64,000 nt of DNA from Hyaloraphidium curvatum SAG 235-1 (Eukaryota > Fungi > Monoblepharomycota). Below the pieces are notes generated by a model. It did no database searches. It was given only the letters and a program-made list of their open reading frames with translations, and was not told the DNA's origin. The DNA lies in NCBI GenBank assembly GCA_025558095.1, contig JAIVFI010000042.1, forward strand, positions 186,001-250,000. The letters are read 5' to 3'. Below, in pieces: positions 47,848 through 61,715 of this stretch. Both the position numbers and the translations under genes were made by a program. Position 1 is the first letter of the stretch; every line of letters starts with the position of its first letter.

Positions 47848-49154
47848 TGCGGGACTTTGAAGGCGGTGGGTGGGCGCGGTTTGACCCGAGGGGAAGCCCG
47901 ACTTCTGGTTTAGTTTGAGGTCCCTCCTGGAATCTCTGCTGGGCTGCAATGAAAGTTGGAAAGGTCCTGGGAGGCACCTCATTGGAAACCGTTCATGGGG
48001 CGCCTCGCCAATGTTCCTCCTGCTCTATGCGCTACTACTACATGTGCTCAATCTTTCGTGCGCCGCCTAGAGGTCCCGCCGCGCTCACTCGATGGTCCAC
48101 GCTCGTCCGACCTGTTGCTCCTCCTAGCCTTGCGCCACGCTCTTCCGCGCATCCACACTCTCCGCCCGTCGGCTCCACTCCACTCGTCTGCCATCATCTA
48201 TTATGCTTGCTCCAGACCGCTATTCTCTCCCCCGGCGACGCTGACCGCCGCGTCACCAACGCCTCACGGTCCCGCGGTCCCAGTTTCCCCGAGACCCCTT
48301 GCCGCACGCACGTCAGGACCGCAATCTATCCCGAAAAGGCTATGCTCGACGTTATTTTAGGCTTTGATCGATCTCGGGCATTTGCCCCGGACGCCGCGTC
48401 AGCCCGATCGCGGCCGCTCCCTCCCGCTCGCCGCCCCACACGCAAATCCCTCCCGCCCTACAGCCCGCCAGCGCCGGCCCGCTCGCCGCCTTCAAGAACA
48501 CGCCCGCGAGACCCGACCTCCCGGCCGCAGCGGCCCCGCCGACCCCCAACGCCCGTCAACAACCCCACTCACCTGTTTCCTCCTTTCCACTCCTTCCTCG
48601 TCGCCCTTCACCAACGCCGCGCCAACCATGAACAACGGCAACGCTCAACAGGCAACGCTCAACAGGTTAGTACCCTCTCGCGTGGTCCGGGTCTGGGGTC
48701 TTGGTCTATGGGGTCGCCGCCGCCGAGGTCGGGCTGCCGAGGCGCGCCGGTACGTTCCCCTGCTCCTGGGAGTTTGCGGATCTCCCCCTAGTCGACGCCG
48801 GCGTAACGGCGTGGCACCGTCTGCTGTTGGGGCGGACTGTTTCAGCCCGCGCAGACCGGTTGGCGCACTGCACAAAGCGGAAATGCTAGGCCACAGACCG
48901 CGAAGGTACGCCGTCTGCTCGTAGCCCACACGATAGACTCGATGATGGCGGCACAAGCCCTTTCCGTGATCCTCCTAGGTGGGGCCCGGGCCTTGGGAGT
49001 GATCTTACCCTGCCCGGCAGCGTACATGCGCCCCAGGCCATCAGGGACTCGCGTCACTCTCAACTGACTCAACTTGACCCCCGCCATCCACTGCTGTCGC
49101 CGCCTCCGTAACTCCGCGTTGCTCTGCCTTTGGCCGCCTACAGCGAGCCCGAGT

Positions 49155-49630
49155 TGCGAAGGTACAGGACGTCTGACATTCGGACAAGGGTATTTTCATT
49201 TTCGGTTCGGAGGCGTGGAGGCGTCGGTCCTCGCGATCGACTCGTGATCGACTCGCGATCGACTCGCGAGTGACTCGCGAGTCACTCGCGAGCGACTCGC
49301 GAGCGACTCGCAAGTGACTCGGCACAGCCACCCTCCTGGGATATATAAAGAGCGGGACATGTAACAGTACAATCTTGATCGCCAGTTGACTCTACGTGCT
49401 CTCCGTGTCGTTCGACCACCGTGCGGAACCCCGCCCGGCCGGATCCTCGTTCTGAGAGCCCTTGGGACGCACCCCGGGAGACATCCCGTAACCTCTTTCC
49501 CCCGGCTACAGTCAAGTATCTTCAGCGCTGTTCGCTTATTCATATTCAGGGCCTATCCGACCCGAAGAGCCGAGCGGGATTCGCGCGCCGGGTTAGAGCT
49601 TCAGGCCCGGTTCCGACCCGGACCGTCGCA
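49155..49630 (+). repeat. 5' LTR (476 bp)
   Basis: TGCGAAGGT...ACCGTCGCA (8/9 terminal inverted repeat); matches 59334-59809 with no differences seen. Confidence 0.97.
49230..49349 (+). promoter_or_regulatory. LTR U3 array of ~8 x 11-bp GACTCGCGA(GT/TC) units followed by TATATAAA
   Basis: 11-nt periodic repeats at 49230-49321; TATATAAA at 49342-49349. Confidence 0.8.
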
Positions 49631-49631
49631 C

Positions 49632-49649
49632 TGGTCCGACCTCCGTGAT
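49632..49649 (+). other. Primer-binding site, 18 nt, tRNA-Tyr type
   Basis: TGGTCCGACCTCCGTGAT, 1 nt after the LTR; its complement ends AGGTCGG-A-CCA (C1:G72 and A73, the eukaryotic tRNA-Tyr acceptor identity). Confidence 0.7.
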
Positions 49650-49797
49650 CCTGCTCTCGGGTCTTCGACACCTCGTTCGACTTCAGTTTCGACTTCGATA
49701 ATCCAAAAACAACTTCGCCTGGCACCGGCGCTTGTCGACTGCCACTCTTTTCTGTCAACCGTATTCCGTCAACCAAGTTCATTCCCCTTCGCCAAAC

Positions 49798-51453
49798 ATG
49801 GACCCCGTTCAAGAAGCCGCCCCTCAGCAGGAGGTTCAGCAGCCTCAGGAAGCTAACGATTTGCAGAACAACCCGCAGGCCCAGGCGATTATCCAAGCTG
49901 CGCAGGCCGCGATCCAGCAAGTCGGCGCCGCCGCCAACGACGTCGCCCAACTCGCCGCCCAGCAAGCCGCCCAGCAAGCCGTCGCCGATCAGCTTGCCGC
50001 TCAGCTCGTGGCGCAACAGACCGCTCAGCAGTTGCCAGCTGCCCAAGTTCAACAGCAAGCCGCCGCCGAGCAGCTTGCAGCGCAGCAGCTCCAGCAGCTC
50101 GCCGCACAGCAGCAGGGTCAGCGGAGCGAGCAAGCCCCGGCTGTCAACGCTGCCGCCGCTGGTCTCCAGCCGCAGCAGTTCGTCGACGCCGTACGGGCCA
50201 TCGTTGGCGCTCAGCCGCCGAACGATGGAAGCACCGGCCTCCCCCAGGCGGATCGCCAGGGCGGAGCCGCCAAGCTCCCGGCTCAGCTGCTGCCTGCTTC
50301 TGTTCAGCCCTTCGATCCCGCTACGCAGGACCCGGAAGACTTCTTCCGCGACCTCACTACGGTTCTCACGGCGTTCGGCTCCATCAACAACCTCGTCAAG
50401 GTCTTCCCGGTCTTCCTTGGGCCTCTGCCGCGCGCAATGTGGCACAACATCACGCCGCAGAACCGCCCTCCGGACTATCCCGCGACGGCCACCTATCCTC
50501 CGGTGACCCAGAACGATGTGCTTGCCTGGCTACGCTACCACTTCGAGCCCCGCGACGCATCGATGCATTATCGCCGGCACTACAACACGATTCAGATGAC
50601 CAACGATGAGACCCTCGACGCCTTCGTTGCCCGCGTATCCCTGGCCGAGACGCGTTTCCTCTCGCACTGCGGCGATCAGCTTCCTACCAGGGAAGTGCAA
50701 GACAGCGTGTACGGCCAGAACCTGCTCTATGGACTGCGCCCGGAGCTACGCGGGAAGGCGCTGGAGCTCCTCGGGGATCACCTCATCAACCGCACTTCCG
50801 TCACCAAGGTCATCGAGAAGATGCGCACCGTCATGCAAGCATCGGGCCCTGCGCAGCCGCGCGACATCCGTTTCCTGGGCCAGAACTCGATTTCGGAGAT
50901 TCCGGCTCTGGTCGGCCAGCACTCGTCTTCGGGCTCCTCCAAGGCGACCGACAAGGCGACGACGGAAGTGCTGCTGGCTCATACGCAGGCTCTCACAAAG
51001 CTGCTGGAGCCTAAGGGAGAGCGCAGGCCCACCGGTGGACCGCCGGGGGAGTCTGCGTTCCGGCCTCCGCGCCGTTTCGTCCCCTTCCAGTCTCGTCGGA
51101 GCCAGCCGTTGCCGCCTTCGGGGCCGAACAGCGACCTCGTCGAGATCAAGGAGCTCATCACCAAGCTGCTGCCGTCGCCTCGCCATCAGGTTCAGGCCGC
51201 GGAGACCAGGTCGAACCCCCCCGCGAGGCCTCCTCCGATCGATCGGCCCCGCCAGCAGCAGGAGCGCCAGGATCGCCGGCCCTTCACCTCGGAGTACCGC
51301 GACCAGAAGCGCTTCCAGCCTCGCCACTGCCATCTCTGTGGCATGGATGGGCATGCTCAGGACGAGTGCTGGGAGTTGGAGAAGAATGCCAACCGCCGCC
51401 CACTCAACTGGAAGTCTCGCCTCGGCAACACCCCTTCGATGCCAAAAAACTAG
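49798..51453 (+). CDS. gag: Gag with Q/A-rich N-terminus and CCHC zinc knuckle
   Basis: MHR-like IQMTNDETLDAFVARV; CHLCGMDGHAQDEC. Confidence 0.93.
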   Translation: MDPVQEAAPQQEVQQPQEANDLQNNPQAQAIIQAAQAAIQQVGAAANDVAQLAAQQAAQQAVADQLAAQLVAQQTAQQLPAAQVQQQAAAEQLAAQQLQQLAAQQQGQRSEQAPAVNAAAAGLQPQQFVDAVRAIVGAQPPNDGSTGLPQADRQGGAAKLPAQLLPASVQPFDPATQDPEDFFRDLTTVLTAFGSINNLVKVFPVFLGPLPRAMWHNITPQNRPPDYPATATYPPVTQNDVLAWLRYHFEPRDASMHYRRHYNTIQMTNDETLDAFVARVSLAETRFLSHCGDQLPTREVQDSVYGQNLLYGLRPELRGKALELLGDHLINRTSVTKVIEKMRTVMQASGPAQPRDIRFLGQNSISEIPALVGQHSSSGSSKATDKATTEVLLAHTQALTKLLEPKGERRPTGGPPGESAFRPPRRFVPFQSRRSQPLPPSGPNSDLVEIKELITKLLPSPRHQVQAAETRSNPPARPPPIDRPRQQQERQDRRPFTSEYRDQKRFQPRHCHLCGMDGHAQDECWELEKNANRRPLNWKSRLGNTPSMPKN

Positions 51454-51491
51454 CTTTGCCCTCAGTGCCGCACGGCCATAGGGGGGCAGAG
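51444..51491 (+). other. -1 programmed ribosomal frameshift signal
   Basis: A_AAA_AAC immediately before the gag TAG; pol is in the -1 frame; downstream stem 51454-51463 pairs with 51482-51491. Confidence 0.85.
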
Positions 51492-54400
51492 ATCCAAGCT
51501 CTTGAACCACATGTGGAACCTCTTCCTGGAACTTCCCCGCTGCCGGACGGCACGGACCCTTCATCTCCTGGCGGATCGCCGGAGTTGTCGGATTCCGCGA
51601 CCGATGAACCGACGGCGGAGGACCACGTTCATCATTGGCCCTTCGGGGGCACGGAGTACATCCTCTTCCTCGAGGCGGAGGCAGCTCGACAGGCCGCCGT
51701 TCGTCAGCAGCGGGAGGCGCTCATGCCGATCGACGAGACCCTGGCCCCGCCGCCGGCAGCGGATTCGGCGTCGCCCGGCTCGGTCGAGGTCGTGGGAAAC
51801 GGTGAACCGGCGGCACAGGATGCGGACGCGGGATCAGCGGATGCACCTATGCACGAGGGCCCGACCGTCCGCGCCGTTCCCGGACCTTTCGAAAGGCCCC
51901 CTCCTCCTTCCGCCTACGCACGACCACCGCTGCCTGGCCCTCGGCCTCGCCCGCGGCCACCTGCTCCGGTCGCCCCTCCGCCGGATCGCTGGACGTGGAC
52001 TTCGCAAGTGCAGTTCCACTATCAGGCGGCACGCGTTTCGGCATGGGTCAACGGCGTGAATACCCCCGCGGCCCTCGTCGACTCCGGTGCCTCAGTGGTG
52101 GCGGTTCGGTCGTCCTTCTTCTGCCGGATCCACCCGTCGCCACCGATCAAACCATGGACACTCGGCACCCTCAGCACGGCCGCGGCCGGCGGAACCATGT
52201 GGGTCCGCGGAGTTGCTAAGATGGACATCCTGGTCGGGAATCAACACTGCGTCATGGACGTCGCCATCATGGACGGTCTCATGGACGACGTGATCCTCGG
52301 CACCCCTTGGCTCTCCGCCCTACGCGTTCAGATGGACTGGGAGACGCCGGTCCTCTATTTCAAGGACGATCCGGAGGGGGTCGTCGTGCCAATGCACATT
52401 GTTGCGCGACCGCTCTTCGGATCACACCTGGTCGCCCCGCTCCATTCAACCACCTCCATCACGGTCTACCCCAACGAGGACGTCTCGATCACCGCTGAGC
52501 TGGCCCCGACGACTCCCTTGGCGACCGTCGTGGAGATGGACTTGACAGGGGTCATCGAGACGCCGAACACTTCGCCGTTCGATCGCCTCTTCATCATCCC
52601 GTCGGCGACGCCCGACAGAGACGGTCGGCTGCCGATTCTCATCCGCAACTACGGGACGACACCGGTCACGATCGGCCCGGGCACCCACCTCGGCCGCTTC
52701 CGCGTGCGGATTCCTGGATTTCTCGCTCCGGAACCGCCCACGTATCTGGCTCCCGCGCAGATCTCGATGCTGGAGCCCGAGCTGCCCCACACCGAACCGG
52801 CCGAATCCACGCTCACGGTCGAGGAGACCATCGATCTGTTCGCGGTGCCCTCGCCGGGATCGATTGGACCACCTCAGCCTCCCGGCGTGGAGCCTCCTCC
52901 GGTCGAGGCTATCGAGCTCAAGATGGACCAAACGATCCTGAGCGAGGGGGACAAACCTCGTTTCCATAAGCTCTGCGACCGCTACCGGGACGTGTTTGGT
53001 CCTTGGATCGGCAAGCTGCGCAACCATCGCTTCCGGATCGACACGGGCGACCTCAAGCCGATCCACCAGATGCCGTACCGGACCCCGTTCCGGCTTCGCG
53101 GGGAAATGGACAAGATCATCGACGACCTGCTCGTGCAGGGCGTAGTCGTCCCCTCGCGAAGCCCCTGGGCCACGCCCTGCATCATGGTGCCAAAAGGGCA
53201 CGGCTCGGGCGAATGGCGCCTGGTGATCGATTACCGGAAGCTCAACGCCGCCACCAAGCGCGACGTCTACCCGATGAAGAACCCAAGCGACACTCTCGCT
53301 CTCCTCAGCGCGGCCAAGGTGTGGAGCGTTTGCGACATCCGCTCCGGCTTTTGGCACGTGGAGGTGGCCGACGAGGACAAGGAAAAGACGGCCTTCACGA
53401 CGCACCGCGGTCTCTACCAGTGGGAGCGGATGGCCATGGGCTTTACCAACGCTCCTGCAACCTTTGCTCGGATCATGGACGAGCTCCTCGCCGGCCTCCA
53501 GTGGTACTGCTTGGTGGTCTTCATCGACGACATCATTATCTTCTCGCAGACGGTCGACGAGCACCTCGTGCACCTGGAGCTCCTCTTTGACCGACTGCGC
53601 GAGGCCGGGATGACTCTGAAGCTGGCCAAATGCAAGTTCTTCCGCCGCGAGGTCAAATACCTCGGGCATTACGTCACCGCCGACGGCCTCAAGGTCGACC
53701 CCGAGAAGACCCGCGCGGTGGACCAGTTCCCCCGCCCAACGACCAAGAAGGAGCTCCAATCGTTTCTCGGCCTCTCCAACTACTATCGCCCCTTCATTGC
53801 CGGCTACGCCAACATTGCCAGCCCGCTCACCCGCCTGACGCAGGACGGCGTCTCGGTCTCTCGGGCCTGGGACGACGCATGCGAGGCCGCCTTCCGTATG
53901 CTAAAGGAACGGCTTACGTCGGCGCCCGTGCTCCGTCGCCCCGACTTTTCCAAGCGCTTCGTCTTGTTCACGGATGCCAGCGATATCGGCCTCGGCGCGG
54001 TGCTCAGCCAGCGGGACTCCGATGGCAAGGAGTACGTCATCGCCTACGCCAGCCGCGCTCTGCAGCCGAACGAGCGCAAGTGGGACACTCGGGAGCGCGA
54101 AGCCCTGGCCGTTGTTTGGGCATGCGAGCATTTCCGGGCGTATTTGATCGGGGACGAGTTTGAGGTGGTCACCGACCATAGCGCCCTCAAATGGCTCTTG
54201 GAGACCTCCAAGCCGGGCCGCCTACAGCGCTGGATCCTCCGGCTCTCGGACTTCAGGTTCCAGATCATCCATCGCTCGGGCAAAGCGAACTCCAACGCCG
54301 ACTTCCTGTCTCGTCAGCTCGTGGCGCCGTCGCCCGACGAGGACGTGCCTATGGGCGACCCCGAGGAAATCTTGGACATCCCTGCCTTTTGGCCCCCAAA

Positions 54401-56501
54401 CCCTCCCGACCCCTTGCCTTTTTCTTCTTTTTCTGGGGGGGGACGGGCGCCCGGATTCCTCTCCGGGAGTGATCTCGGTCAGACTTCCCGTTCTTCGTCA
54501 ACCCCAGTCACCGAGTCAGACTCGGGACGAGCTACTGCGGGTTCCTCAGTCAATTGTGAATCAATGGAGCGAGTGCTGTCTGGCACGGAGTTCCCGGCCA
54601 CGGTTGCCGCAGTGGAGGGAACCCTGTGGAGCGATCCGGGGACCCTGCCCGAGGCTGCGGCACCGGAGACGCAGATCCTCCTGCCGATCCCAACGACGAA
54701 CGCACAGGTCGACCCGGCAGACGTGCCTGAGCGAGACCTGGCGTTCCTTCATCCGGCACTGCTTGAGGTGCTACCCGATGTCGGGGGCATCAGTGCTATT
54801 GACCTTGCCGACGTCAGATCCCGGGATGCCCTGCGCAAAGTGCAAGAAGCCGACGTCGAGACCAGCGCGCTGATCCGCTTCGTGCGAGACGGGGAGCTCC
54901 CTCCCAACGTGAATCTGGCCAAATTCTGCAAGAAGTACGGCGAGCAGTACTTCCTCGCTACGGACGGCGTGCTCTGCCGGCGCGATGTACTCGCGACTGG
55001 TACCCGTCGTATCCCGGTCACCCAGCTCGTGATACCGCACGAGCTGAGGGAGGCCTACCTGCAACGTGCGCACGACGATCCCCTGAGCGGGCACGTCGGG
55101 CGACACCGGGCGTACAGCAATCTGCGGCGCCGCGTATATTGGGTCGGCATGGCGCACGACGTTCGCCGCTGGACGCGAGCCTGCCTTACATGCATGACCC
55201 GGAAGATGCCTTCGGTATCGAACCAGGGCTTACTGAAATCGGTTCCTCTCACAGGTCCCAACGAGGACATCTACATCGACTACATCGGCGAGATCAATCC
55301 GGCCACGCCCCGCGGCAACAAGTACCTTCTCGTCGTCTACGATCCGTTCACTAAATGGGTCGCGGCGTATCCGACTCCGGACCTCTCTGGGCCGACGACG
55401 GCGAAGCTGCTCTATACGCGATGGATTCTCGAGCACGGTCTTCCGAAGCGGATTCACCACGACAACGCCTCGAACCTGGACAACCATTACATGGAGTACC
55501 TGCTCAAGCTACTCGGCATCAACCGGGGCCTGGTCACGGTTGGGCATCCCAGGGCTTCCCTCGCGGAGCGCCCGAACCGGTGGATCATCGACGCCCTGAG
55601 CGCAGCGGTCTCCAAGAACTACCAGACATGGGACGAGGACATCGTGGGGGTCATCTTTGCCTTCCGGACCTCCATCCACGCGACGACCGGCGAAACTCCG
55701 TTCTTTCTGATGCATGGTCGGGATGCTCGTATTCCGCTCGACCTACTTTACGACGAGACCGAGATTCGCGAGCCAGTGCACCTGCGGGCCAGCGACGAGG
55801 AGGACAAGAAGACAGAGGATGAGCGCCGGCGGACCTACGTCGTGGAGCTCGTGGCGCAGCTTCGTGCGGCCTACGACCTGGTGGCCGAGAAGATGGCCGC
55901 AGCGGCGGAGACTCGGAACGCCAAGGCCAACGCTACCCGGCTTCCGATTACCTTCCGCCCCGGCGACCTCGTGCTCATCTGGGGACCAGAACGACCGCGC
56001 AAGGGCGAGCCGGGCAAGTTCGTCTCTCGTTATCTTGGGCCCTACCGCATCGAGGAGTCAGGCCACACCGAGCTCACCTGGAAGTGTAGACACGTCTACG
56101 AGACCGACCACGTCACCACTGTGCATGTGGACCGGCTGGCGCGCTACAAGCCTTGGGAGTCGGCCACCTTCAACGCGCGCTCGTGGAACGCACGCGCCCC
56201 GGAGCTCGCCGCCGGTGAAGAGCTCGATCTCTCGGAACCGGTGAACGAGTTCGAAGAGGAAATCGAGGTCGAGAACGCGCTTGGGAACGAGCAGGAGTAC
56301 ACCGTCGAGGACATCGTCGGCCACGAGGGCCAGGGTCACGGACTCAAGTTCGAGGTCAAGTGGCGGGGCTTCGCTCGCACGACCAAGCTCCCTCTGGACA
56401 TGTTGCACGGCGCCATAGGGATCGTCCGCGCCTATGCCGATCGCGTTGGTCTCCAGCTCCCGACGGGTCTCCCCAGGCGCATGCGGACTCGGCGTCGCTA
56501 G
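51444..56501 (+). CDS. pol: Pol: aspartic protease, RT, RNase H, integrase, chromodomain (intact)
   Basis: ALVDSGAS; RLVIDYRKLN, MGFTNAPATF, FIDD; TDAS...E...TDH; HHCC plus D,D,E; GPY motif; YTVEDIVGH...FEVKWRGF. Confidence 0.97.
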   Translation, partial: KKLALPSVPHGHRGAEIQALEPHVEPLPGTSPLPDGTDPSSPGGSPELSDSATDEPTAEDHVHHWPFGGTEYILFLEAEAARQAAVRQQREALMPIDETLAPPPAADSASPGSVEVVGNGEPAAQDADAGSADAPMHEGPTVRAVPGPFERPPPPSAYARPPLPGPRPRPRPPAPVAPPPDRWTWTSQVQFHYQAARVSAWVNGVNTPAALVDSGASVVAVRSSFFCRIHPSPPIKPWTLGTLSTAAAGGTMWVRGVAKMDILVGNQHCVMDVAIMDGLMDDVILGTPWLSALRVQMDWETPVLYFKDDPEGVVVPMHIVARPLFGSHLVAPLHSTTSITVYPNEDVSITAELAPTTPLATVVEMDLTGVIETPNTSPFDRLFIIPSATPDRDGRLPILIRNYGTTPVTIGPGTHLGRFRVRIPGFLAPEPPTYLAPAQISMLEPELPHTEPAESTLTVEETIDLFAVPSPGSIGPPQPPGVEPPPVEAIELKMDQTILSEGDKPRFHKLCDRYRDVFGPWIGKLRNHRFRIDTGDLKPIHQMPYRTPFRLRGEMDKIIDDLLVQGVVVPSRSPWATPCIMVPKGHGSGEWRLVIDYRKLNAATKRDVYPMKNPSDTLALLSAAKVWSVCDIRSGFWHVEVADEDKEKTAFTTHRGLYQWERMAMGFTNAPATFARIMDELLAGLQWYCLVVFIDDIIIFSQTVDEHLVHLELLFDRLREAGMTLKLAKCKFFRREVKYLGHYVTADGLKVDPEKTRAVDQFPRPTTKKELQSFLGLSNYYRPFIAGYANIASPLTRLTQDGVSVSRAWDDACEAAFRMLKERLTSAPVLRRPDFSKRFVLFTDASDIGLGAVLSQRDSDGKEYVIAYASRALQPNERKWDTREREALAVVWACEHFRAYLIGDEFEVVTDHSALKWLLETSKPGRLQRWILRLSDFRFQIIHRSGKANSNADFLSRQLVAPSPDEDVPMGDPEEILDIPAFWPPNPPDPLPFSSFSGGGRAPGFLSGSDLGQTSRSSSTPVTESDSGRATAGSSVNCESMERVLSGTEFPATVAAVEGTLWSDPGTLPEAAAPETQILLPIPTTNAQVDPADVPERDLAFLHPALLEVLPDVGGISAIDLADVRSRDALRKVQEADVETSALIRFVRDGELPPNVNLAKFCKKYGEQYFLATDGVLCRRDVLATGTRRIPVTQLVIPHELREAYLQRAHDDPLSGHVGRHRAYSNLRRRVYWVGMAHDVRRWTRACLTCMTRKMPSVSNQGLLKSVPLTGPNEDIYIDYIGEINPATPRGNKYLLVVYDPFTKWVAAYPTPDLSGPTTAKLLYTRWILEHGLPKRIHHDNASNLDNHYMEYLLKLLGINRGLVTVGHPRASLAERPNRWIIDALSAAVSKNYQTWDEDIVGVIFAFRTSIHATTGETPFFLMHGRDARIPLDLLYDETEIREPVHLRASDEEDKKTEDERRRTYVVELVAQLRAAYDLVAEKMAAAAETRNAKANATRLPITFRPGDLVLIWGPERPRKGEPGKFVSRYLGPYRIEESGHTELTWKCRHVYETDHVTTVHVDRLARYKPWESATFNARSWNARAPELAAGEELDLSEPVNEFEEEIEVENALGNEQEYTVEDIVGHEGQGHGLKFEVKWRGFARTTKLPLDMLHGAIGIVRAYADRVGLQLPTGLPRRMRTRRR

Positions 56502-56571
56502 TAACACCAACGACGTCTATCCGGTCACAGCACTACCATCTCTGTGCTCCGATCCCCGGCTTTTCACTGAC

Positions 56572-57557
56572 TCAAACCCGACGTACTACCTCGAGCCTAT
56601 CCTCGACCCCCTCGAACGCCAACTTGTGATACCCGGACTGAAAATGCGTGTTCAGATTGCCCAGGAGGCCCTTAGCCTTGTGCTTTACCAGATGGCACCA
56701 CGGGAACGAGCATACCGCCACTTCGCCCTTGGTGGGGCTCCGGTACAGTTCGCCGGCGTACGTTCCGGCAATCTTCCATCGGAGGAAGGAGCCTGCCGGC
56801 ACGGCATCAGGGACCTTCTTCGTCACCCGTTCCGCCTTCAAGCCCCAGACCGGCGACGACTTCTTCATCTGGCACATTCAGTGACGATCAGCGCTTGTGG
56901 GGCGTACTCCCGTCGAGCCGTTCACCTGCGCAATCTGCTCCCGGGCCTCCCCGCGCTGCACCACATGCCCCTCGTCTTTACCTGAAGTTGCCGTTTGGGC
57001 CGTCTGGAAGGCGCTCCCTTGTTCAGTGGCGGCCTCGAAGTCGCCTAAGTGGTCCAGCTCCCAAGAGGGCGCATGAAGCGTGACTGACAGCACGGGGACT
57101 TCGTCGGCCGCCTCGAGCTCCTCCCTCGAGTCCGCCGCCGACTCGCCCTCGCCGACGGAAGGCGCACCCTTCGACGACATCGCCGGCAGGAAGACGCCGG
57201 AGGTCCGGGTTGCGGCCGCGGCCGCGATCGGGTCGTTGCCTCTGGCCCCGCCAGCCTCGCGCAGCTTGGCGGTCCCGCCGGCCTCGCGCAGCTCGGCGAC
57301 GAGCCGACGGAGCACTCGGACCTCGACAACGACGTTCCCAGCCTCTTCGGCCAGCGGCAACATCCCGCGCATGGCGGCCAGACGCACCAGTTGCAGGAAG
57401 CAGTCGACCACGTCGTCCTCCTGGCGCGGCGCTGAGCTCCCGTTCGAGGACCACGCCGCTACGCTCTTACCTTGGTGCACAGCAGGACGTCGAAGGTCGG
57501 CAACCGAACCTCGAACCACGAACTCGGCGGGACGACGTTCGGCAGCTCCGCACTCAT
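56572..57557 (-). CDS. Antisense three-exon accessory gene (~292 aa) with C-terminal BED/C2H2-like zinc finger, inside the retrotransposon
   Basis: Exons 57557-57471, 57420-56926 and 56868-56572. Phase-0 introns of 50 nt (GTAAGA..CCAG) and 57 nt (GTGAAC..CTGAT..CCAG) each remove a stop. Motif CSFPWC-x16-H-x5-H (GNLNTHFQSGYH). Confidence 0.68.
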
Positions 57558-57696
57558 GACAGGCGCGGAGATCCCCCCAGCTCTTCTGGACCCTACGTCG
57601 CGATCCCCCGCGAGCGCTTTCGTCGACGCAATGGCGTACGGCCCTCGCTCGCGCCCCGTCCCCCGTGGCGGGGACTGGTGACCCGGTGTGCGGGCG

Positions 57697-57857
57697 AACT
57701 CGCGGTCGACTCGACTCGCAGTTGACTCGCGGTTGACTCGCGGTTGGCTCGCGGTTGACTCGCAAGTGACTCGCGAGTCACTCGCGAGTCGCTCGCAAGT
57801 CACTCGCGAGCGACTTGCGATGCACTCGCGAGTTGCCTGCGCTTCGCACCATATAAG
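57697..57857. promoter_or_regulatory. Internal array of ~12 x 11-bp LTR-type GACTCGCG repeats plus CATATAAG; putative bidirectional promoter
   Basis: Same unit as the LTR array (gtgactcgcgagtcactcgcgag is shared exactly); lies between the ATG at 57557 (-) and the ATG at 57926 (+). Confidence 0.75.
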
Positions 57858-57925
57858 CGGCGGACCACAGGAGGCCGCGGCCGCGGACTACGCACCCAAC
57901 GTCGACCTCGCCGCTACCGTCTCCC

Positions 57926-59191
57926 ATGGCGACCCCCACGACTGCCGGCCACAACCTGCGGCCCCGCCGGCCGCATGTGGCCACGGCGCCGCCGCCGGCG
58001 ACTGCGCCCGTCGCTGCGTTGCCTGGCGTCGTACCCCCGGACTATCGGTCGGCGCTTGCCTCCCTCTCGACCCGGCTGGACGACCTCCGGGCCGACCTCG
58101 ACGTCAGACACTCCCAGACGACGGCCCACTTGCACAAGGTCGAGCAGGCCGCCTTCTCCGCGGTCATGCCCATCCGCGCAGCCCTCGACGCACTCCACCC
58201 GGTGCTCAACACCCTCGTCAATGTCGGCAACCTGGAGCAGCACGCTCTTGACCGCGTAACGGCGACGCTCGAGCAGCAAGAGGCCCGCCTGGACGCCCAG
58301 ATCCGCCAGCAGCGTGACGAGCTCCAGGTGGTCCTCAGTGGCCGCCACCGCGAACTTGAGTTCGCCGTCACCGCCTTGCGCCGGACCGACGACGCTCGTC
58401 TCGGTGCCATCGAGACGCAGCTCGACCGGCTTGCGTTGGTGCTCGAGGCTCAACGTCAGAACTTCAACGGCATTCTCCTGGTGGACGAAGCTACCATCGA
58501 GGAGTTGAGGGAGTTCGGCTCTTCCCTCGCCGGGCTGGTTGCTCAGACCGGGACCAACCTCGAAACCACCATCGAGACCGTCGTCGAGACCAATCTCGCC
58601 CGTCACAACAATGGCCCCATGGCGGAGTTTGCGGCCGACCTCAAGAGCGTCCTGGCGGCCCATCTGCAGCGATTTGGGTCGGAGCAGCACAAGCAGCTCA
58701 TGCTTTCAGCTCAAGACCACACCACGCTCCTCACGGCCGGCCTGAACGCGCAGCGCGAGCACTTCACCAAGACCGCCGACGAGCAACGGGCCCTCCTGCG
58801 TCGCTTCCTCGGCAATCAAGTGGCTCCCCTGGCGGGGCAAACGACGCCCGCCGTGGTCACCTCCACGCCGGTCGGCCGCGTCAAGGACGAGGACCTCGTC
58901 ACCTCCGACGATGAGGCTGGGGATATGCAACCTCCAGCTCCTCGCCCCGAGAGCGTGTCCAGCAGCGACGCCTCCTCCATCGTCTCGCAGGACGACGGCC
59001 TCTTGGCCGCCCTGTACGACGACATCCCGGCCGCTCCCTACAAGTCGACCATGCCCCCGGTCTACACCCCCTCGGCCGCGGACGGCTCAGCCGTGCATGC
59101 CGCCTTCGCTCTCGGCTTTACCCGCCGGCTCCGCGCCCCGCCGCCGAGCGACGACGAGGCGGACGCCGACGTCGACTTTGAGGACGCCTAA
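57926..59191 (+). CDS. Retrotransposon ORF3: 421-aa helical/coiled-coil protein with N-terminal GHNLRPR motif and acidic tail
   Basis: Intronless ATG ORF ~70 nt after a TATA-like box; GC-ending codons like gag/pol; no signal peptide or TM segment. Confidence 0.85.
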   Translation: MATPTTAGHNLRPRRPHVATAPPPATAPVAALPGVVPPDYRSALASLSTRLDDLRADLDVRHSQTTAHLHKVEQAAFSAVMPIRAALDALHPVLNTLVNVGNLEQHALDRVTATLEQQEARLDAQIRQQRDELQVVLSGRHRELEFAVTALRRTDDARLGAIETQLDRLALVLEAQRQNFNGILLVDEATIEELREFGSSLAGLVAQTGTNLETTIETVVETNLARHNNGPMAEFAADLKSVLAAHLQRFGSEQHKQLMLSAQDHTTLLTAGLNAQREHFTKTADEQRALLRRFLGNQVAPLAGQTTPAVVTSTPVGRVKDEDLVTSDDEAGDMQPPAPRPESVSSSDASSIVSQDDGLLAALYDDIPAAPYKSTMPPVYTPSAADGSAVHAAFALGFTRRLRAPPPSDDEADADVDFEDA

Positions 59192-59322
59192 GCCACCCTT
59201 CGGCCCTACACTCTCCAACATCTGTTGTCTCCACCTCGGCCTTCAACATCTTCTACTGCAAGCATGACGTCACTCCGCGGAGGATCTTCGATTTCGTGGC
59301 GCCGAGGGCGGCGCCTTCTTTT

Positions 59323-59333
59323 GGGTGGGGGCG
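59323..59333 (+). other. Polypurine tract
   Basis: GGGTGGGGGCG directly before the 3' LTR. Confidence 0.7.
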
Positions 59334-59809
59334 TGCGAAGGTACAGGACGTCTGACATTCGGACAAGGGTATTTTCATTTTCGGTTCGGAGGCGTGGAGG
59401 CGTCGGTCCTCGCGATCGACTCGTGATCGACTCGCGATCGACTCGCGAGTGACTCGCGAGTCACTCGCGAGCGACTCGCGAGCGACTCGCAAGTGACTCG
59501 GCACAGCCACCCTCCTGGGATATATAAAGAGCGGGACATGTAACAGTACAATCTTGATCGCCAGTTGACTCTACGTGCTCTCCGTGTCGTTCGACCACCG
59601 TGCGGAACCCCGCCCGGCCGGATCCTCGTTCTGAGAGCCCTTGGGACGCACCCCGGGAGACATCCCGTAACCTCTTTCCCCCGGCTACAGTCAAGTATCT
59701 TCAGCGCTGTTCGCTTATTCATATTCAGGGCCTATCCGACCCGAAGAGCCGAGCGGGATTCGCGCGCCGGGTTAGAGCTTCAGGCCCGGTTCCGACCCGG
59801 ACCGTCGCA
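59334..59809 (+). repeat. 3' LTR (476 bp)
   Basis: Copy of 49155-49630; ORF-track translations inside the two LTRs are identical (offset 10179). Confidence 0.97.
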
Positions 59810-59847
59810 GAGTGGTGGCGCCGGAATCGCCTGTCGCTGTCTCCGCG

Positions 59848-61715
59848 ATGGCTCCTCCGCCCGAACAGTCCGACAGGATGGACGTCGACGACCATTCGTG
59901 CGTACCGCTCTCCACGACCTCCACGCCACCAATTCTGACGCTCTTATACTCAGTGATGACGACGTGGTGTTTCTCAGCGAGTTTGCTCCGGTCCGCTTCG
60001 CCCCGAGTTCTGCCCATATCAGCCCCCAGGACACACACACGCTCGCTATAGGCGCCTTCACCGTCAACGTCAAACCGCATCAAACGTTGTCGACCGAGGA
60101 AGTCGCTTTGCGCACAGACCGAATCAAGACCTACACCGATTCGGTGCTGTGGGCACGGGACCTCGTCTTCATTCAGGAACCTCTGGGCGACGCCGCCACG
60201 CTTGCTGGCAGGATGCTGCGCATGCCTGTCGATGCGCAACTATGGCGGTCGCATGTGGGCAACCGCCCAACCGTCTTTGCTCGCGCCGGCTTTGGAGGTT
60301 TTGAGCACGTTCACGTGCCTGACTTTGGCAGTTCCGCTCTGCTGCTCAGCACGCACCCCGATGCCTTTTCCGAGTTCATTTGGCTTTGCGGCGCATACCA
60401 CGTCAAACCTGAGCTCGGTGCCCTCGATGCTACCTCACGCTGTGCCTGGTCGTTCTGGGCCAACACGCAAGTTCCTGGCGTTGCACTTGTTGCCGCCTCG
60501 TTCTGGGGCCGCAAAAACCGATCCCGCGAGGGCGGGCGGCTCCCAGAGGGCGCAGATGGCATGGAACTGATCATGGCATTTGCGCTGGGAGCCATGCGTG
60601 TCTTGCGCACCAAGACCGGCTGTGACGTTGTTCTATGTCTCCTTGGTGGTGACGCGAACGACGACGGCACTTGGGTGACATGCATACGCAACCCACTGCG
60701 CGCCGGTGGCCGTTTGGAGAGCAAGTTCCACAGTCTCTCGGATGAGGCGCTCAGCCGAGATCTCGGCACCAAACGTAATGTCGACGGTCTGCTGTTGTGT
60801 GCTCTGCCGCCTCCGAACGCGGCAATGGACCGTTTGATTGGGCTGCGACGGCAGCACTGGGCACAAGGCGGTGTACCTGAGCGGATTGGCTCGCACCCCG
60901 TCGTTGGTGGTTGCTTCCTCGTGGACGTGCGGCCGCGTGCTGACGAGTGCGGACCTCTTCTCAAAGCCGAGGGTTCATTGCAGCCGGCAGACCAATTCGC
61001 CGATGTGGAAGGCACACCAGTGGAACCCGAACTGGTAGCGCCCCCAAGGTCCCCCATCACGTTGGACGGCGCTCAGGCCGCCCCCGGCCCGTTCTATGCC
61101 ATCACTGCCCCATCTTCCCCCCCGGCACCAGCGCAGACCGTGCGGGCAAGGGGGCGCCACCGGGGCCGCGCCGTGCCTGAGCCGAGGGAGAAGCAGGTTA
61201 GGGCAGCAACACCCGAGCACCTCAAGCTGGACCCCGACACCCTGCGTTCGACCATCATCAACGAGATGAAGACCGGCCTCATCCAGACTTTAATCACGAT
61301 GCTCCGAGAGACCGGATACACAGTGCCTGAGGCCGAGTCCTTCGCGATCCAATATCTCAAGAAACTCCACAACACCACGTATCAAACCCATGCCCAGCTC
61401 CGAAATCTCGACAGCAAGCGGTTCTATTGCGGACACAGGGGAGACACACCTGAGGCCTGCAAGAGTACCATCTCCTCGGAAATGCGCGGGGCCGGGTTTG
61501 ACACCTGCCACTCCGCCAACAAGGCCTTGATGGATCGCACCATGATCACAAACATGATAATCAGCCTGGAAGATGCCCGCCGGCTGATTCCGAACGCCGT
61601 TGCACGCTACGTCGATAGGGATGAGGCAGTGTGCAGTGTGCGCAACGTGCCCAAGGCGGATGGAAAGGGCAAGGGCAAGAAGGCGGCGGAAAGAGCCGGA
61701 TCGTCGTCGGACTAA
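59848..61715 (+). CDS. Exonuclease-endonuclease-phosphatase (DNase I-like) fold protein with unknown C-terminal domain; 5' end at or interrupted by the retrotransposon
   Basis: Ordered EEP motifs AFTVNV, DLVFIQE, LGGDAN, RNVDGLL, GSHPVV; intron ~59898-59953 (GTGCGT..CTGAC..CAG) joins MAPPPEQ..DHS to DDDVVF in frame. Confidence 0.6.

Follow-up and report, generated by a model that had tools for sequence, protein, structure and literature searches.

The antisense gene and its retrotransposon

The window analysed here, a 64-kb stretch of Hyaloraphidium curvatum SAG 235-1 DNA (contig JAIVFI010000042.1), contains a Ty3/gypsy LTR retrotransposon of 10.65 kb (49155-59809) that carries, between pol and the 3' LTR, a coding gene on its antisense strand (Table 1). 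The gene consists of three minus-strand exons, all multiples of 3 in length, which join in phase 0 and give a product of 292 aa plus stop with a C-x4-C-x16-H-x5-H pattern near the C-terminus. It lies back to back with a sense frame, ORF3, across an internal array of 11-mers.

Table 1. Features of the antisense gene and of the surrounding element, in positions of the window
Feature	Position	Strand	Description
5' LTR	49155..49630	+	476 nt; 11-mer array 49230-49321; TATA box 49343
gag-like ORF	49798..51453	+	551 aa; stops just past likely -1 frameshift heptamer
pol frame	51015..56501	+	protease, RT, RNase H, integrase; weak C-terminal chromodomain match
Exon 3	56868-56572	-	297 nt, 98 aa + stop; basic domain with W, C-x4-C-x16-H-x5-H
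Intron 2	56925-56869	-	57 nt, GT..AG, in-frame stop
Exon 2	57420-56926	-	495 nt, 165 aa; short motif shared with homologue, likely helix, then acidic linker
Intron 1	57470-57421	-	50 nt, GT..AG, in-frame stop
Exon 1, coding part	57557-57471	-	87 nt, 29 aa; begins at first ATG downstream of array
Internal 11-mer array and TATA-like box	57698..57856		LTR-like unit with 10-nt palindrome; box at 57851 faces ORF3
Sense ORF3	57926..59191	+	421 aa, intronless, likely coiled coil and acidic tail
3' LTR	59334..59809	+	476 nt, identical to 5' LTR; short purine-rich tract just before

The two LTRs begin with TG and end with CA, and the element is flanked by a 4-nt target-site duplication, GAGT; the identity of the LTRs together with this duplication indicates a recent insertion. 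The LTR termini, the duplication and the protease-RT-RNase H-integrase order place the element in Ty3/gypsy, and the pol chromodomain match that would mark a chromovirus lies below the Pfam cut-off (E 0.024). The 120 pol relatives listed are unclassified and at most 52% identical to the window's pol. The 551-aa ORF had no match in Pfam and is taken as gag from its position. An A-run heptamer at 51440-51453, immediately 5' of the gag stop and with pol in the -1 frame, is the likely ribosomal frameshift site. A primer-binding site was found at 49632-49650, downstream of the 5' LTR; a eukaryotic tRNA-Tyr presumably matches it with its 3' end, and would be an unusual primer. No tRNA genes were found in the 64-kb window. 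Beyond the element, a long plus-strand frame at 59810-61715 belongs to no clear Pfam family; the element sits at its start, and the frame is possibly a gene interrupted by it.

Splicing of the antisense gene

Because each intron contains an in-frame stop, it takes splicing to link the finger with the upstream exons. The 1.2-kb region holds 235 possible GT..AG pairs of 40-80 nt, so that the joins are not provable from the sequence alone and outside evidence is needed. One public run, X1, was found to hold the stretch; it is available as contigs, and its kind, "RNA?", is a guess of the tool. An X1 contig skips exactly intron 2 (56868>56926, 57 nt, CT..AC on the plus strand) at a depth of 198, with 255 nt on the shorter side. 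Intron 1 is likewise skipped exactly (57419>57470, 50 nt) at a depth of 611 with 82 nt on the shorter side, and this join reads CT..AC on the plus strand with the cut placed one position on. The pieces listed for both junctions show no mismatch to the window; the contigs carry no strand, start or end information and do not resolve cover over the introns themselves. The initial annotation had proposed that three minus-strand pieces, separated by introns of 50 and 57 nt, join in phase 0 to encode about 292 aa, as a spliced gene antisense to the LTR retrotransposon around it, and had named the junctions 57471/57420 and 56926/56868 as the check. Its coordinates and splice sites were confirmed by the exons, the surrounding Ty3/gypsy element and the X1 contigs, probably RNA, in which both junctions are exact.

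The joins could be something other than splicing of this copy if X1 were DNA, or if the contigs came from an intron-less copy elsewhere. The RNA label is a guess, at least one copy in the family is rearranged, and there is a non-canonical joint. However, both joins fall exactly at minus-strand GT..AG, a homologous protein spans join 2, and the depth, with steps between about 7 and 611 inside the element and a value of about 1 in the right flank, is unlike that of DNA. On account of these steps X1 is probably an RNA run, and an artefact is very improbable, the least likely of the rival explanations. The six loose ends listed, of 25 in X1, do not map in the window, which therefore offers no host intron to confirm RNA. 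The antisense gene is almost certainly real and spliced, and it is expressed in at least one data set.

Several other X1 features were observed around the element. A joint at 55298>57338 (depth 104, short side 28 nt) takes out the last part of integrase and the larger share of the antisense gene; it was rejected as splicing, having GT-AG on neither strand and a short overlap at its ends, and is probably a deleted copy. Contigs of diverged pol relatives, about 88-93% identical and of low depth, cover 53232-53684 and 55412-55620, so that related families are present. Just left of the element, 48500-48900 has a cover of 968 and a repeat-unit variant of 14 nt; a loose end there, at a GT, has no matching position in the window. 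A multi-copy gene or a further repeat may account for this region.

In each of the three exons, synonymous codon use in the antisense frame resembles that of other genes in the window, and none of 2000 base shuffles reached the observed score in any exon (z 2.9, 5.1 and 4.6), a test that is weak alone since a plus-strand frame over exons 1 and 2 scores equally high. Exon 1 rests on the observed junction and on codon use. Exon 2 also contains a 27-nt in-frame duplication at 57247-57298.

Introns on the antisense strand would survive retrotransposition, since the genomic RNA that is copied reads CT..AC across them and leaves them unspliced. GTRAG donors, a pattern chosen after the fact, are absent from the sense strand of the 10.65-kb element against 7-10 expected, and none of 200 simulations was as low. 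The antisense strand has 12 against 23-27 expected, and host strands have about 6-8 per equal length. This lack of GTRAG on the sense strand fits selection against splicing of genomic RNA, and it agrees, within the limits of a post hoc pattern, with the earlier proposal that introns persist on the antisense strand only. The sense ORF3 had been called intronless, and it is indeed one uninterrupted frame.

A single homologue and the conserved domain

A HMMER search of 1.84 billion cluster representatives with the exon-3 product returned two matches, of which one is real. This is P0121, an unnamed or hypothetical H. curvatum protein of 274 aa (E 4e-11), in which the domain is likewise C-terminal. 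The other (P0122, E 4e-5) is a surface protein with Ig repeats from a bacterium; it matches outside the finger and was set aside as chance. P0121 and the antisense protein share 43% identity over 90 aa; W8, C53, C58, N71, H75 and H81 of exon 3 are kept, but the spare His59 and His63 are not. The Cys/His conservation for which a check had been suggested was thus found for all four putative zinc ligands, in this one homologue. The alignment continues unbroken across the exon 2/3 join, which shows the second join to be right at the protein level. A second motif, in exon 2, is also common to both proteins (0 of 1000 shuffles reach its score), whereas exon 1 has no similarity to the P0121 N-terminus (447 of 1000 reach it). 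Conservation limited to the domain, at 43%, implies selection on the finger.

Further searches added no relatives. Among longer proteins, a word-index search with exon 3 scored none of 36 candidates, a two-sequence profile scored one of 3302, which was P0121 itself, and the finger profile found relatives in none of 172 candidate stretches in metagenomes and none of 49 in viral contigs. No identical match to the exon-3 product was found among the 1.84 billion cluster representatives or by exact look-ups; ORF3 is on record, so the expectation that annotation had missed the antisense gene holds.

Type of the zinc finger

The protein is laid out as a helix-like motif, an acidic linker (19 D/E vs 9 K/R) and a basic finger (17 K/R vs 8 D/E). 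The C-terminus probably binds zinc, and the finger is likely of CCHH type, BED-like in look and not placed in the BED family. Whether it is a diverged, DNA-binding BED finger is an even bet. The BED signature comprises C-x2-C and two N-terminal aromatics (PMC3365051). The antisense protein and P0121 both have C-x4-C at the first knuckle; their second ligand pair, H-x5-H, falls within the H-x3-5-[H/C] of BED; and of the aromatics W and F the Trp is conserved, with the second aromatic absent directly after it in both proteins. In the antisense protein 44 residues separate this Trp from the first Cys. In the BED domain of Hermes, 16 residues lie between the second Cys and the first His, bases are read by an Asn placed four residues before this His, and a pair of quasi-palindromic repeats is bound by two such domains (PMC10368747). 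The antisense finger resembles this type (PF02892; hAT transposases, DREF, ZBED) in its C..C..H..H order, the 16-residue spacing, the Asn four before the His, the N-terminal Trp and a His spacing within 3-5. It differs by C-x4-C, the absent second aromatic, the long insert after Trp, the lack of a Pfam or fold match and the lack of an attached transposase.

Database searches gave few assignments. Pfam returned no family for exon 2, exon 3, the finger alone or the whole of P0121, and a PDB sequence search returned only KLF5 (E 0.42), the two-sequence profile yielding nothing relevant. The named Atlas (language-model) clusters nearest to both the antisense protein and P0121 are zf-BED or the related zf-C2H2_12. 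This support is weak, with a recognition of 2277 against the tool's mark of 2300 and P0121 scores of at most 0.83, and only 12% of members in the BED cluster bear the family. AlphaFold models were of low confidence, with pLDDT 39.8 for the single-sequence model, which is uninformative, and 51.5 for the two-sequence model, in which two strands and a helix lie over the ligands. With this model Foldseek gave no match at E <=0.001 and VIA-align reached at best Z 2.9 (PH-like folds), none at Z 5; because the model is poor, these blanks count neither for nor against a fold. Of the zinc finger with a BED-like helix described in the initial annotation, the likely CCHH finger stands; BED is a candidate identity, with neither Pfam, PDB nor fold support and with C-x2-C and the second aromatic missing. 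The proposed fold check gave strands and a helix at low confidence and no fold-search match.

A different assignment would make the gene real but its finger a matrin/JAZ/U1-type, RNA-binding one, which may bind for example sense/antisense dsRNA and so damp RNA silencing or handle genomic RNA. Both proteins have H-x5-H followed by Lys, with H-[FL]-x-S after the first His, a pattern reminiscent of matrin/JAZ fingers. The His helix of P0121 also matches Pfam zf-C2H2_14 (CIZ1-like) weakly, at E 0.019 over 15 residues, but nothing comparable came up for the finger of the antisense protein. In the matrin/JAZ/U1 group the Cys-to-His spacing is about 12, shorter than the 16-18 between the second Cys and first His here, and the Atlas neighbours are BED-type. 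Binding of double-stranded RNA by JAZ fingers is on record (10.1101/210187). Over gag and RT the X1 cover is 38, and in the integrase region beyond the antisense stop it stays at 130-200, which could reflect a long sense/antisense overlap; yet the contigs are strandless, and a 3' bias of sense RNA would likewise raise the cover. An RNA-binding role is unlikely.

Internal array, ORF3 and a candidate two-way promoter

The internal array proper spans 57698-57833 and has the same unit as the LTR arrays, with the palindrome at its core; the three arrays hold 12 of the 17 occurrences of the 8-nt core. On the plus strand of the 64 kb, ATATAA occurs three times, once in either LTR and once at 57851, always some 20 nt past an array. 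No minus-strand ATG lies between 57851 and 57558, but there are 24 between the end of the 3' LTR and 57557, which disfavours an antisense start in the 3' LTR. The spliced X1 contig extends through ORF3 to 59361, which would also fit this less likely start, and no TATA-like box was found on the minus strand between the array and the ATG. The internal array is reasonably likely to be a two-way promoter, with antisense RNA starting between 57850 and 57560. A bacterial promoter scan, a method not apt for this DNA, found nothing.

ORF3 has no membrane-length hydrophobic stretch and is not env-like by hydrophobicity; its Pfam rows are weak and sub-threshold, and no relatives were found in 48 candidate stretches of viral contigs. 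Its region has the highest X1 contig depth in the element. The ORF3 protein clusters with a named H. curvatum protein, 99.7% identical to it over 338 aa. P0124, a named H. curvatum protein on another contig, joins pieces antisense to integrase (55150-54855, minus) to most of ORF3 (58184-59188, plus) at a 7-nt shared sequence, and this hybrid structure points to another copy of the element that is inverted or rearranged.

Proposed role of the antisense protein

An accessory DNA-binding regulator is the whole best explanation for a spliced gene with a likely CCHH finger beside the element's own 11-mer promoter arrays, and we rate it at somewhat below even odds. In the proposed mechanism, an LTR-derived internal promoter would drive ORF3 forwards and the spliced gene backwards. 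The reverse-strand RNA would lose its two introns and yield the 292-aa protein, whose C-terminal finger would bind the palindromic 11-mer arrays and sustain or tune transcription of the element. The introns would persist through retrotransposition since the genomic RNA is the opposite strand. Binding of the protein to the arrays, with activation or protection of LTR and ORF3 transcription as its effect, is tentative; such binding is suggested by proximity and by analogy with Hermes BED and VANC. A more specific form, in which an element-encoded, sequence-specific transcription factor with a BED-derived finger would bind the arrays of both LTRs and of the internal two-way promoter in an autoregulatory or anti-silencing loop, is doubtful. 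Such a loop would resemble retroviral Tax/HBZ or VANC.

The gene could instead be a passenger, a host or hAT-transposon gene captured with its promoter and expressed with no service to the element, P0121 then representing a possible source family in the host. Introns of host type would point to capture at the DNA level, the only homologue comes from the same or a very close species, the viral (0/49) and metagenome (0/172) stretches hold no relatives, and conservation is confined to the finger and one short motif. Against this, the element has identical LTRs and the frame within it is unbroken and has deep cover, the adjoining promoter-like array is the LTR's own repeat rather than a host motif (8-nt core 12/17 in arrays), and the domain-limited conservation implies selection on the finger. 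We consider a passenger improbable.

It is quite unlikely that the antisense RNA itself does the work, by self-limiting silencing of pol, or that the protein acts through protein contacts such as integration targeting or partnership with ORF3. Regulatory antisense RNA has been discussed for retrotransposons (PMC7264820), and the upstream region common to both genes would suit co-expressed partners. However, the conserved ligands, the helix Asn and the basic charge suit nucleic-acid binding better.

Relation to known antisense genes of transposable elements

Additional ORFs that lie antisense between pol and the 3' LTR (aORF-3R) form a known class of unknown function, with maize Grande gene23, rice RIRE2, Silene Retand/TRP28 and bean PvRetro13 as examples (PMC7264820; PMC11963269). 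For Grande gene23, a promoter of its own and a nuclear product are on record (PMC7264820). The gene in the window has the position of aORF-3R and, as a candidate promoter of its own, an array with a TATA-like box. The known aORF-3R cases are in plants, with no intron mentioned in the review or in the available part of the second source (PMC7264820; PMC11963269). Their products are TRP28, SMC-like or unknown, in contrast to the CCHH finger here, and the present gene differs further by its back-to-back sense ORF3 and by an array that repeats the LTR's own unit.

Among fungi, the gene brtn is said to have one short intron, as Zhao et al. reportedly described in 2011. It is an antisense gene after pol in Boty-like Ty3/gypsy elements of Botrytis and Sclerotinia (PMC7264820, PMC8365987, PMC4227169). 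The two systems are alike, by description and not by sequence, in being fungal Ty3/gypsy with an antisense gene after pol, Boty having a chromodomain (PMC4227169) and the present element a weak chromodomain match; they differ in that Boty is from ascomycetes, against Monoblepharomycota here, and that no divergent ORF3 is mentioned in the available parts of its descriptions.

Further parallels exist in retroviruses and DNA transposons. HBZ of HTLV-1 is spliced, and it is a bZIP rather than a zinc-finger protein. By analogy only, HTLV-1 HBZ and HTLV-2 APH-2 are also antisense regulatory genes of a retro-element (PMC11963269), unlike here being retroviral and driven from the 3' LTR (PMC7264820). 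VANC proteins target tandem repeats of their own VANDAL transposon (PMC5735166). The working model likewise proposes an element-encoded protein acting on its own tandem repeats; VANC belongs to an Arabidopsis DNA transposon and has binding shown, whereas binding here is predicted by analogy.

A literature search of titles and abstract openings, with subscription papers and supplements outside its scope, found no report of this element or of a BED-like antisense gene in an LTR retrotransposon. The words antisense and BED are absent from the main text, in its accessible part, of an atlas of Arabidopsis transposon products (PMC13547354), and a 2020 review asks for a search for spliced antisense transcripts in retrotransposons (PMC7264820). 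Antisense accessory genes are known, and this protein family is new. What distinguishes the case is an intact element with two observed junctions, an unannotated protein family and a back-to-back pair of genes around an LTR-type array.

The case bears on the open question of what antisense accessory genes do in LTR retrotransposons, and it is unusually testable, with an intact element, public junctions, a small candidate DNA-binding domain and the element's own repeats as candidate target. Annotation by ORFs only misses such spliced antisense genes. The antisense-gene layout is extended to an early-branching fungus, and if the finger does bind the arrays, both a protein and its target site would be identified within one intact LTR element.
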